Shown: piece by piece, positions 12,960 through 14,875 of the stretch
How positions within the stretch are numbered: the first letter of the stretch is position 1
Layout: each line of letters starts with the position of its first letter
Source of the DNA: Candidatus Bathyarchaeota archaeon
Lineage (GTDB): Archaea > Thermoproteota > Bathyarchaeia > 40CM-2-53-6
Length of the DNA stretch: 25,921 nucleotides
Assembly: GCA_005882905.1 (NCBI GenBank)
Contig: VBBG01000024.1
Span: 1-25,921 of the forward strand
Reading direction: 5' to 3'
The notes under the pieces: generated by a model
The model's input: the letters and a program-made list of their open reading frames with translations, nothing else
Databases searched by the model: none
What the model was told of the DNA's origin: nothing
Program-made: the position numbers and the translations under genes

Positions 12960-13346
12960 CTAGAGCTCTTCGAGCATCTTCCGGGACCAGAGCAATGACG
13001 CTTGTGGCTTCTTCAAGACTTTCTGGGGCTTCGATTTTTTGGGAGCGGCTGCCGCTTTGATCGCCTGCGGAATAAGTCCCTTGTTGGGGAGGACGGGATG
13101 GGGTCCTATTGGATCTTTTCCTAGTCCTACGACCGAGCCCTCTGGATCACGCATTATCCCATTCTCATAGAAGGCCATGTGACGTCCATCATAGTCGATG
13201 ACGTTCCCCTGCTCGTCGAGCCAGGCTAGATTGTGTCCGTCGAAGTCGACGATTCTGTTGTCTTTGAGAATCCGGTATCGAGCGGTACCATTCTCGTCCC
13301 ATATGACGTCGATCTCTTCTTCCTCAGCTTCGCGCGCTGGTTCCAA
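12960..13346 (-). CDS. Small beta-hairpin repeat protein resembling the '4-fold beta flower' family
   Basis: Repeated hydrophobic-D-x2-G units (IWDENG, IVDFDG, VIDYDG, MRDPEG), then GPHPVLP and a Lys/Pro-rich tail. TTG start. Confidence 0.6.
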   Translation of the reverse strand: MEPAREAEEEEIDVIWDENGTARYRILKDNRIVDFDGHNLAWLDEQGNVIDYDGRHMAFYENGIMRDPEGSVVGLGKDPIGPHPVLPNKGLIPQAIKAAAAPKKSKPQKVLKKPQASLLWSRKMLEEL

Positions 13347-13463
13347 ACCGGTTCGCTACGCCCTCTACGCGTCAAGCTAAGAAGGTTATCCACACACTTA
13401 CGAGTCAAACAGGTAGAGTTCTAGGCGTGCCTGAAATCAACCCTTTTCTTAAAATAGCAGATA

Positions 13464-13670
13464 CTGTCTATCAGCTCTAGAGGGGCGTTCGCGGCGGAAA
13501 CTCATACTTGTCCCGTCTGCGGTCACACTGGTCCATGCACTCGGTCCGCTGGTGAGACTGGCCAATATCGGTATCACAACTGTCACGTGTGTGGCTCTAC
13601 TTGGAAAGAACAGAGGACCCAAGGGGAGCCTGGTGACAAGGATTCGAAGGCCACTCTCCAGACCGCATAG
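13464..13670 (+). CDS. Zinc-ribbon microprotein (CPVCG-x19-CHVCG), TFS/TFIIS C-ribbon-like; start codon non-canonical or mutated
   Basis: Manual translation, absent from the ORF track: ...AAETHTCPVCGHTGPCTRSAGETGQYRYHNCHVCGSTWKEQRTQGEPGDKDSKATLQTA*. Open from 13458 to TAG 13668-13670, with no ATG/GTG/TTG before the first Cys. CTG at 13464 is used as the nominal start. Confidence 0.6.
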   Translation: MSISSRGAFAAETHTCPVCGHTGPCTRSAGETGQYRYHNCHVCGSTWKEQRTQGEPGDKDSKATLQTA

Positions 13671-13912
13671 TCTCTAGTCGGACTCTAGTTCCAACTCTGA
13701 AATACTAGTGCCTAGGCTGTGGCCGTCGATCTACATTGCCACGGGCCGGCCAGCACTCAAGCAGTAATCGTCGACAGAGGAAGAAGAACAGGATGAGAAA
13801 GCGGACTCGGAATAGTCGGAAGCCCAGCAGGGTCAGATAATCCTCTTAGAGATCACTTGAAAAATGGTTTCTCAACGGCCGTTTCGGGGAGCGGGATTTG
13901 CTACAACTACTC

Positions 13913-14371: not shown

Positions 14372-14875
14372 TCAGCCAAGCCTCATGTATCTCTTCAAGC
14401 GAGGCCATCCAGTCTTCGCAAGCCTCAGCCTATCAGGATCGCTCTTGACCCAGCGAAGCATGTGGAAGAAGCTGCGAGCCCTCTTCTCGTCTCTATCAAC
14501 AAGTGGTTTGTAGCCCAAGTTTCTGATCTCATCAAGATAAGCTGTCTCCACGTTGTCCTGGGCTCTTCCAGATATCACTGATACGTGCACTCTCTCCTTG
14601 CCGTATTGTTTCATGAGCTCTGGCCGGGTCTCGTCGAACAGGAAACTGCCGCAGATCTCGATCTCTTCTCCCTCTCCGAGCTTCATCTGCTGGAGGAGAC
14701 GTAGAGTCAGCTCAGTCGCTTTCTTGAGGTAGAGCTTCCTTCGAAAGTCGGGGGGCTGAAAATAGCCAACGGGTATGACATCATAGTGGAACTCGCCGGT
14801 CTCCTTCCGGTGGGCTCCGACAATCGCTCCGAATAGAAGGTCGCCCACACCCGCGTCGTCAACTTGAATTGTCAG
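14372..14875 (-). CDS. Uncharacterised protein with an RNase HII-like N-terminal motif; probable CTG start
   Basis: Extending the track ORF (GTG 14848) upstream gives CTG-T-I-Q-V-D-D-A-G-V-G-D-L-L-F-G. The frame is closed by TAG/TAA at 14885-14890. Confidence 0.7.
   Translation of the reverse strand: MTIQVDDAGVGDLLFGAIVGAHRKETGEFHYDVIPVGYFQPPDFRRKLYLKKATELTLRLLQQMKLGEGEEIEICGSFLFDETRPELMKQYGKERVHVSVISGRAQDNVETAYLDEIRNLGYKPLVDRDEKRARSFFHMLRWVKSDPDRLRLAKTGWPRLKRYMRLG

Follow-up and report, generated by a model that had tools for sequence, protein, structure and literature searches.

The 25,921-nt stretch of bathyarchaeotal DNA analysed here (the window) carries at positions 13458-13670 of the plus strand a genuine protein-coding gene which is under strong purifying selection and is transcribed. 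On balance, this gene probably encodes a Cys4 zinc-ribbon microprotein of about 55-60 amino acids that belongs to a lineage-specific C(P)XCG family and not to the TFS family. The family was previously undescribed and was found only in soil Bathyarchaeia. An earlier note on this DNA, based on its letters and open reading frames, had proposed an unannotated zinc-ribbon gene behind a TATA promoter, the product being a catalytically disabled, stand-alone relative of the TFS/TFIIS C-terminal ribbon. The gene itself proved to be real and to be missed by default gene callers.

The frame extends from TAG 13455-13457 to TAG 13668-13670 and contains the cysteine motifs quoted in the earlier note. The same note was right in placing a TATA-like string, ttcttaaaata, at 13446-13456, in finding no in-frame ATG, GTG or TTG ahead of the first Cys codon (13509-13511), and in listing ATA 13461, CTG 13464 and TTC 13488 (following agaggggcg) as alternative codons; ATC 13470 is a further near-cognate codon in frame. 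The translation includes THTCPVCGHTGPCTRSAGETGQYRYHNCHVCGSTWKE and is ordered as C-P-V-C-G, another Cys five residues later, T-R-S-A-G-E and Y-R-Y-H-N-C-H-V-C-G-S-T-W-K-E, with at most 17 residues ahead of the first Cys (Table 1). An RNA gene at the locus was ruled out by the Rfam search at gathering cut-offs and the ARAGORN scan, neither of which detected an RNA gene anywhere in the window. The intergenic region also contains a conserved 34-nt element approximately 27-60 nt upstream of the TTG/ATG start of the Bflower gene (12960-13346, minus strand), for which it probably serves as promoter.

Table 1. Coordinates of the ribbon gene and of the elements around it in the window.
Feature	Position	Strand	Basis or remark
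Stop-to-stop frame, 70 codons and stop	13458-13670	+	Frame reading; public gene call P0002 begins at ATA 13461
Promoter element with TATA-like box ttaaaata (13449-13456)	13440-13457	+	Near-identical in all syntenic orthologues
Predicted transcription start, equal to the ATG site of the orthologues; reads a-g-a-g here	13479-13482	+	DNA alignment
Zinc-ribbon core	13500-13610	+	Family profile match, E 2.3e-20; dN 0, dS saturated
Knuckle 1	Cys 13509-13511, Cys 13518-13520	+	Family alignment A1
Invariant fifth Cys; invariant His	13536-13538; 13575-13577	+	Family alignment A1
T-R-S-A-G-E, predicted hairpin	13539-13556	+	AlphaFold2 loop S-A-G-E-T-G-Q with flanking strands
Knuckle 2	Cys 13581-13583, Cys 13590-13592	+	Family alignment A1
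G-S-T-W	13593-13604	+	Family alignment A1
Metatranscriptome contigs X19 (13494-13745) and X20 (13515-13762)	13494-13762		Each at least 99% identical to the window
Conserved 34-nt element between divergent genes	13372-13405	-	Kept in 7 of 7 aligned syntenic loci, including the distant L027

When 40 related genomes were searched in six frames, the orthologous frame was detected in every one of the 21 that belong to the same genus, and each genome also gave several weaker matches to paralogues; in four genomes two family copies were located 12 kb apart. Within the 37-codon core the window's copy shows no amino-acid change relative to its closest orthologues, L010 and L011 (dN = 0), at saturated dS, and a parsimony comparison with four relatives assigned seven synonymous and no nonsynonymous changes to its own branch. 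Since the frame is conserved in all 21 genomes of the genus that were searched and the differences are nearly all synonymous, its preservation goes far beyond chance. Two other frames are likewise open over 13449-13677; variation restricted to third positions fits the ribbon frame alone, and a chance ORF or another coding frame was therefore rejected.

The locus was found in many soil metagenomes, and RNA contigs over the ORF were recovered from two soil metatranscriptomes (X19, X20), so that both homologues and expression, on which the earlier note had made its proposal depend, were found. The only variant within the ORF in the comparison with the metatranscriptome contigs, 13565 A>G, is synonymous. 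Over 13297-13493 the depth was zero in both RNA runs and flat in the DNA runs. No other family copies were detected in the window's own genome, a 79%-complete MAG in which the weak hits were unrelated ribbons.

Family members are 45-70 aa long, the orthologues 54-61 aa if counted from their start codons, and were seen only in soil Bathyarchaeia MAGs with one to six paralogues per genome. All 46 named genomic loci derive from MAGs of this type (BA_x, 13_1_40CM, UBA185 and Centralia assemblies, and in addition two records that bear evidently wrong phylum labels). In an alignment of 22 diverse copies (A1) the residues C4, P5, C7, G8, C13, H26, C28, C31, G32, S33, T34 and W35 are invariant and H2 is nearly so, the family signature being H-x-C-P-x-C-G-x4-C ... 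H-[ND]-C-x-x-C-G-S-T-W-[KR]-E with 14-21 residues between the Cys pairs. The window's CPVCG and CHVCG agree with the definition of the archaeal C(P)XCG microproteins (PMC11241148), and CPxCG and CxxCG are invariant throughout the family. At E<=0.001, a search of 1.84 billion cluster representatives with the family profile returned just 20 proteins, none of them a TFS; the only one that is not short, a repetitive protein of 3,179 aa, matched the first knuckle alone.

Between the fifth Cys and the His lies a segment of 6-14 residues, which is wholly different in sequence between the subfamilies. In the window's orthologue group it reads T-R-S-x-G-E-T; other subfamilies have I-Y-A-G-x-D-D-G-D-D, I-Y-S-G-P-x-S-N-A, I-Y-P-Q-S-E-S or F-T-V-D-G, and several further loop types occur among the metagenomic representatives. 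Within the orthologue group the loop [TS][RQ]SxGE is kept in 18 loci, with synonymous variation in the codons for Arg, Ser, Gly and Glu; no other subfamily has it. Purifying selection thus acts on the RSxGE hairpin in about 19 species, so that the hairpin has a specific role. Conservation of RSAxE...W, which the earlier note had proposed as a test, is thus confined to the orthologue group, where RSxGE...W is kept, whereas at the level of the family the cysteines and CGSTW persist and the paralogues and wider homologues have the loop types listed above in place of TRSAGE; at that level the outcome is the one that the note had named as a refutation.

None of the family members reached the cut-off of any Pfam or NCBIfam model, and the best sub-threshold Pfam models differ by member, FdhE_central (PF24859) being found for all 22, followed by the IS1595 ribbon, TFIIS, Elf1 and L37ae. 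Zn_ribbon_TFIIS (PF01096) scored 17.9 bits with the full ORF and 20.4 bits with the core, below its gathering cut-off of 21; 15 of the 22 members matched this model at E<1, and none scored above the window's copy. The NCBIfam model TFS_arch matched two paralogues only, at 13.6-15.8 bits against a cut-off of 64.75. FdhE_central reached 14-23 bits in the per-member scan (cut-off 27), and the NCBIfam FdhE models 14-20 bits over the same segment (cut-offs 187-426). The TFIIS_C model, put forward in the earlier note as a check, therefore did not single out the TFS assignment, FdhE_central, Elf1 and the IS1595 ribbons doing equally well.

AlphaFold2, supplied with the family alignment, predicted a four-strand ribbon with a disordered tail (mean pLDDT 69) in which the loop S-A-G-E-T-G-Q would form a hairpin tip with a strand on each side; it has been pointed out that AlphaFold2 is no guide to real metal binding by cysteines (PMC11241148). 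Foldseek against the PDB gave no match at E<=0.001, the top entries being Elf1/ELOF1, Rpb9, NrdR and HVO_0758. With VIA-align over 48,161 chains the best Z was 3.8 for assorted zinc ribbons, NrdR and L44e among them, compared with 3.2 for TFS of T. celer, 3.0 for TFS4 on RNAP (rmsd 1.8 Å over 37 residues) and 2.6 for TFIIS. The sequence profile retrieved no TFIIS, TFS or Rpb9 from the PDB and matched Nop10, rubredoxin and L37Ae at knuckle level only, and the closest clusters by ESM Atlas features were unnamed small proteins. The fold matches are thus generic and say nothing beyond "zinc ribbon".

The genome encodes one ordinary TFS of 111 aa on contig C227. Its CxxC pairs are separated by 24 residues compared with 20 in the microprotein, as the earlier note had expected, and its loop reads QTRGADESSTQFFRC (Q-T-R-G-A-D-E-S-S-T-Q-F-F-R-C) in place of the QTRSADEP which the note had given. 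A BLASTP comparison with the tail of this TFS yielded 10 identities in 24 positions, spanning T-R-x-A-x-E and CxxCGxTW[KR]E, and hhalign of the family against the C-ribbons of the lineage's TFS gave a probability of 96%, an optimistic value from a single pair of short Cys-rich profiles. Five genomes belonging to other families have no copy of the microprotein family; in these the TFS C-ribbon ranked first or second among the hits of the family profile (E 0.19-0.64) and first among those covering the whole profile. The hhalign result and the full-length hits may reflect a distant common origin of the family with TFS. The likeness to TFS that the earlier note had seen in the sequence thus exists in a consistent but weak form in sequence, profile and fold; membership of the TFS family does not follow from it.

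The ribbon has the four cysteines of PF01096 (CxxC...CxxC), while the acidic D-E pair of the conserved loop is absent, the window reading G-E. Neither the 70-codon frame nor the orthologues of 54-61 aa contain an N-terminal Rpb9-type ribbon and linker ahead of the C-ribbon, the parts by which TFIIS and TFS are anchored on the polymerase. Furthermore, the positional orthologues at the same syntenic locus (L083, subfamily B) read C-I-Y-A..D at the loop, and in a tree of 61 cores one origin of RSxGE suffices, nested among I-Y-type members with weak support from 35 columns; most forks are not settled in this rooting, which agrees with a single derived origin and does not prove it. Because positional orthologues and paralogues alike read I-Y-type, the TFS-like loop is most likely derived, having arisen within the genus from an I-Y-A-type loop, and was not inherited from TFS. 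If so, the simplest reading of the resemblance between T-R-S-A-G-E and T-R-G-A-D-E would be that it is convergent or fortuitous.

It is against this background that a TFS-derived function of the RSxGE group has to be judged, in which a stand-alone, catalytically disabled TFS C-ribbon would enter the RNAP secondary channel with its G-E hairpin and modulate or inhibit the polymerase like Sulfolobus TFS4. The Zn_ribbon_TFIIS match extends over the whole 39-position model, and together with the BLASTP identities, the hhalign probability, the full-length TFS hits in genomes lacking the family and the Z values for T. celer TFS and TFS4 it speaks for this reading, as do the position of G-E in the predicted hairpin loop and the purifying selection on the loop within the orthologue group. 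There is also the precedent of TFS4, in which a shortened, non-acidic tip makes the cleavage factor an inhibitor (PMC5715097). However, TFS4 has kept both ribbons (PMC5715097), whereas the microprotein lacks the N-terminal one with its linker; every score lies below its cut-off and is equalled by other ribbon models; the family profile recovers no TFS from either the cluster representatives or the PDB; the loop varies in paralogues and positional orthologues and looks derived; TFS has nothing corresponding to the invariant fifth Cys and His; this genome's copy has no start codon; and the genomic context points to thioredoxin instead. We therefore regard a TFS-type function as very unlikely. 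Equally slim is the chance of a bolder combination in which the RSxGE group converged on, or retained, a TFS-like hairpin and plugs the secondary channel as an unanchored ribbon and, separately, the window's copy is still translated although its leaderless promoter is followed by neither a canonical nor a near-cognate start. If this were true, the RSxGE ribbon would be the smallest known secondary-channel regulator, and translation of the window's copy would mean that initiation in this clade of Bathyarchaeia can follow an unconventional mode.

The closest orthologues begin with M-G-R-... or M-S-R-..., and their ATG is located 23-26 nt past the 3' end of a near-identical cttaaaatag box; the box of subfamily B is similar (ttcaaatag). 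In the TATA-to-start geometry of archaea such spacing implies a leaderless mRNA, so the orthologues are considered leaderless genes. The true start, which the earlier note had hoped to obtain from homologues, was thereby located in the closest orthologues and found to be replaced in the window's copy: the DNA alignment pairs gtaATGgggcgt of L010 and L011 with ctaGAGgggcgt of the window, a 1-nt gap comes next, and the orthologues' ATG is aligned to g-a-g in the window (a-g-a in frame). A base error at 13488-13493, suspected in the earlier note, and an assembly error at 13479-13493 were excluded by two independent soil assemblies (X3, X6) with zero differences over 13425-13564. The start-less state was seen in at least three independent assemblies, and since X3 and X6 agree, the loss of the ATG is real and fixed in this population.

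Between the predicted transcription start (about 13479-13482) and the first Cys no canonical or near-cognate start codon occurs. Transcripts from the TATA box cannot include the near-cognate ATA, CTG and ATC at 13461-13470, which are too near to it; their use would need a different promoter further upstream, for which a weak, non-conserved AT-rich octamer at 13432-13439 is the sole candidate. The ends of the RNA contigs, at about 3x depth, are compatible with a transcription start at 13479 or with an upstream one near 13463. Across the family, 6 of about 42 copies have a non-canonical codon at the conserved start site (three ACG, one CTG, one TTA and the window's AGA), whereas none of 50 unique loci has an internal stop or a frameshift, which suggests that odd starts are tolerated. 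The copy with CTG at this site (L059) has accumulated five synonymous and no nonsynonymous changes on its own branch. In a neighbouring gene of the window (14372-14875, minus strand), CTG likewise occupies the exact site at which the orthologues carry ATG, GTG or TTG, and this CTG recurs in the orthologue of a second species with an in-frame stop two codons upstream.

There is nearly an even chance that the window's copy was recently silenced at translation, i.e. that it is a fresh pseudogene whose leaderless ATG has been destroyed and whose RNA is still made but yields no ribbon protein, a scenario compatible with the family identity. Leaderless translation requires a 5'-terminal AUG or, more weakly, GUG; the alignment of the ATG to GAG/AGA with the 1-nt indel immediately behind it, the lack of any canonical or near-cognate codon from the predicted transcription start to the first Cys and the fixation of this state in the independent assemblies all fit such a loss. 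The seven synonymous and zero nonsynonymous changes on the copy's own branch, on the other hand, would confine silencing to at most about the last sixth of that branch by a rough estimate; the frame has suffered no frameshift, stop or lost Cys, the locus is still transcribed, and both the excess of odd starts over internal lesions in the family and the CTG kept by the neighbouring gene in two species argue against it. Unconventional initiation, for example at CTG 13464 or ATA 13461 on a transcript beginning further upstream, is supported since the neighbouring gene keeps its CTG start and paralogues carry ACG or CTG, and represents a serious possibility with somewhat less than an even chance.

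The ribbon gene of the window's subfamily lies in a conserved synteny with a CitMHS permease, the Bflower gene, a YjbR-like gene and a "DDAGVGD" gene, and the order CitMHS-Bflower-ribbon-YjbR-like is common to the orthologue group, L083 and subfamily B. These neighbours are conserved and uninformative on function, and the window's own subfamily is not adjacent to thioredoxin. In 16 unique loci of subfamilies C and D the ribbon start was detected 2-5 nt behind a thioredoxin stop, with the same upstream coding string in all 16; the upstream gene was assigned to Pfam Thioredoxin (E 1.5e-29 and 2.8e-33), and a divergent ArsR-type regulator (HTH_5, E 1.2e-10) and an MFS transporter are located beside these loci. 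The ribbon of subfamily A2 is found downstream of an M24 peptidase gene. No formate dehydrogenase or other redox enzyme was noted adjoining the inspected loci.

A role of the family in thiol-redox processes or metal handling is a tentative and rather doubtful proposal, which is nevertheless the most economical one because of the thioredoxin coupling, the invariant extra Cys, the conserved His and the precedent of Trx2, whose zinc finger is thought to mediate target interaction (PMC8615215). In this mechanism the metal-thiolate ribbon would serve as a rigid scaffold, a shared partner or a second metal might be contacted by the conserved face made up of His, the fifth Cys and S-T-W, and the variable hairpin could confer its own specificity on each paralogue. 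The 16 paralogues presumably translationally coupled to thioredoxin, with the ArsR-type regulator alongside, would then resemble the zinc finger of Trx2 but be supplied in trans. For the window's own subfamily such a role would be an extrapolation only.

The thioredoxin coupling of the paralogues would also suit a rubredoxin- or FdhE-like redox module in place of a structural zinc site, the Cys4 centre carrying iron and shuttling electrons. FdhE_central is the sole Pfam model that matches all 22 aligned members (best E 2.6e-6), the NCBIfam FdhE models cover the same segment, and the pattern CPVCGS...RY.HC..C..(T/E)W presumably resembles the central knuckles of E. coli FdhE, a likeness taken as a lead only. 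Metals other than zinc have moreover been reported in some haloarchaeal C(P)XCG proteins (PMC11241148). All of these matches, however, remain under the 27-bit cut-off and are driven by the two knuckles, no redox enzyme or formate dehydrogenase was noted beside the inspected loci, and the identity of the metal is not readable from sequence. An iron redox module thus seems unlikely.

The microproteins are a new, lineage-restricted addition to the archaeal C(P)XCG zinc-ribbon microproteins (PMC11241148, PMC10716476) and extend the small proteome of uncultured soil archaea, which is poorly charted, by a clearly defined family with evidence of selection and expression. Default gene callers miss or misplace the genes of this family. 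The thioredoxin partner at 16 paralogue loci offers a testable functional lead. The TFS likeness of the gene is most likely shallow and its loop recently derived, and the case advises caution, as the striking motif match to a famous catalytic loop did not survive comparison with paralogues and positional orthologues. A modest question on the start-codon rules of this lineage arises from the window's copy, conserved and transcribed but lacking a start codon, and from the ACG and CTG at the start positions of relatives.

Among the known systems, the central rubredoxin-like domain of FdhE (PF24859) shares with the family the sub-threshold match of 22 out of 22 members over model positions 1-36 of 39; FdhE is, however, a bacterial protein of about 300 aa with more Cys clusters, whereas the ribbons are stand-alone proteins of 45-70 aa. 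With the C-ribbon of TFS/TFIIS (PF01096) and TFS4 they have in common a CxxC...CxxCGxxW[RK]E ribbon with a hairpin tip, and the orthologue group has T-R-S-x-G-E where the TFS of the lineage has T-R-G-A-D-E. They differ from it in having one acidic tip residue instead of two, the shorter distance between the Cys pairs, no N-terminal ribbon or linker, the additional invariant Cys and His that TFS lacks, and a tip which is not conserved in the family and apparently derived.

The N-terminal zinc finger of bacterial thioredoxin-2 (TrxC) is likewise a small zinc module with two CxxC motifs that is tied to thioredoxin (PMC8615215). In the soil archaea the ribbon is a separate polypeptide encoded downstream and not an N-terminal fusion, the likeness drawn here is one of context, and the window's copy has no thioredoxin link. 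The closest parallel in kind is provided by the archaeal C(P)XCG microproteins (PMC11241148, PMC10716476, PMC2253796), such as HVO_0758 and HVO_2753 of Haloferax volcanii and Brz of Halobacterium, which are also shorter than 70 aa, form a single small ribbon from two C(P)XCG knuckles, are often missed by gene callers and are numerous in each genome, be they paralogues or unrelated copies; HVO_0758 is among both the Foldseek matches and the weak Pfam hits of the family. Beyond the knuckles a sequence relationship to these proteins is not detectable, and the family of the soil Bathyarchaeia is set apart from them as a new one by its invariant fifth Cys, the H-x-C and G-S-T-W-[KR]-E motifs and the coupling of some of its paralogues to thioredoxin.

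Three overlapping open reading frames of 70-74 codons each, two on the forward and one on the reverse strand, occupy positions 13449-13677 of the window, and only in the frame encoding the zinc-ribbon microprotein (13458-13670) is the variation limited to third codon positions. A 34-nt element located immediately upstream of the divergent Bflower gene was found to be near-invariant in every syntenic locus, even in a distant one, and is probably the promoter of the Bflower gene.

Besides the copy in the window, the conserved start position is occupied by a non-canonical codon in five further members of the ribbon family, whose frames are all intact and conserved. The ACG codon was detected three times, immediately 3' of a thioredoxin stop codon. 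Furthermore, the "DDAGVGD" gene in the neighbourhood of the ribbon gene carries a CTG exactly where ATG, GTG or TTG is located in its orthologues. A CTG occupies this position also in a Centralia MAG, in which an in-frame TAG precedes it by two codons; the CTG appears to be a conserved start codon in this clade.

Ribbon paralogues of subfamilies C and D are located 2-5 nt downstream of a thioredoxin gene. An ArsR-type HTH gene in divergent orientation lies beside them, as does an MFS transporter. The thioredoxin and the zinc ribbon may represent a two-gene module.

The disordered C-terminal tail ends with K-A-T-L-Q-T-A in the group of the window (13647-13667) and with P-T-L-E-Q-Q-A-x-Q-I-A in the syntenic subfamily B (L029-L034). 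The tails of both share a short terminal motif, which is lacking in the A2 copies and possibly constitutes a short linear motif linked to the locus. In four genomes A2 copies (RSxGE loop) and B copies (acidic loop, D-D-G-D-D) were found on opposite strands. No B copy is present in genomes whose syntenic locus carries the A1 type.

Typical loci of the Bathyarchaeia genus of the window were also detected in DASPWZ010000049.1 (L071/L103) and JAJPJY010000080.1 (L068), entitled "Candidatus Dormiibacterota bacterium" and "bacterium", respectively; both are probably mislabelled MAG records.

Features of the ribbon family and its surroundings (L, stretches of related genomes; G, genomes; C, their contigs; G000, genome of the window)
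Feature	Location	Position	Remark
ACG at conserved start position	L038/L096, L045/L101, L058/L105		
CTG at conserved start position	L059		
TTA at conserved start position	L017/L072		
"DDAGVGD" gene	window	14372-14875 (-)	downstream of ribbon gene; also at L010
Locus with thioredoxin-adjoining ribbon paralogue	L092	2609-3129	
Locus with thioredoxin-adjoining ribbon paralogue	L103	2572-3132	
Thioredoxin-adjoining ribbon paralogues	14 others (L035-L047, L058-L060)		
34-nt element	window	13372-13405	aagctaagaaggttatccacac...
A2 and B pair	G007:C11; G008:C10; G011:C55; G021:C18		11-12 kb apart
59-codon frame	L113, G000 contig C139	465-644	CPRCG...CEYC
ORF, 181 codons stop to stop	L003, G000 contig C88		C-terminal CPKCGST...FRCDNCANDW

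The genome of the window additionally encodes small ribbons unrelated to this family, among which the ORF in L003 also grazes the TFIIS model with 16 bits.
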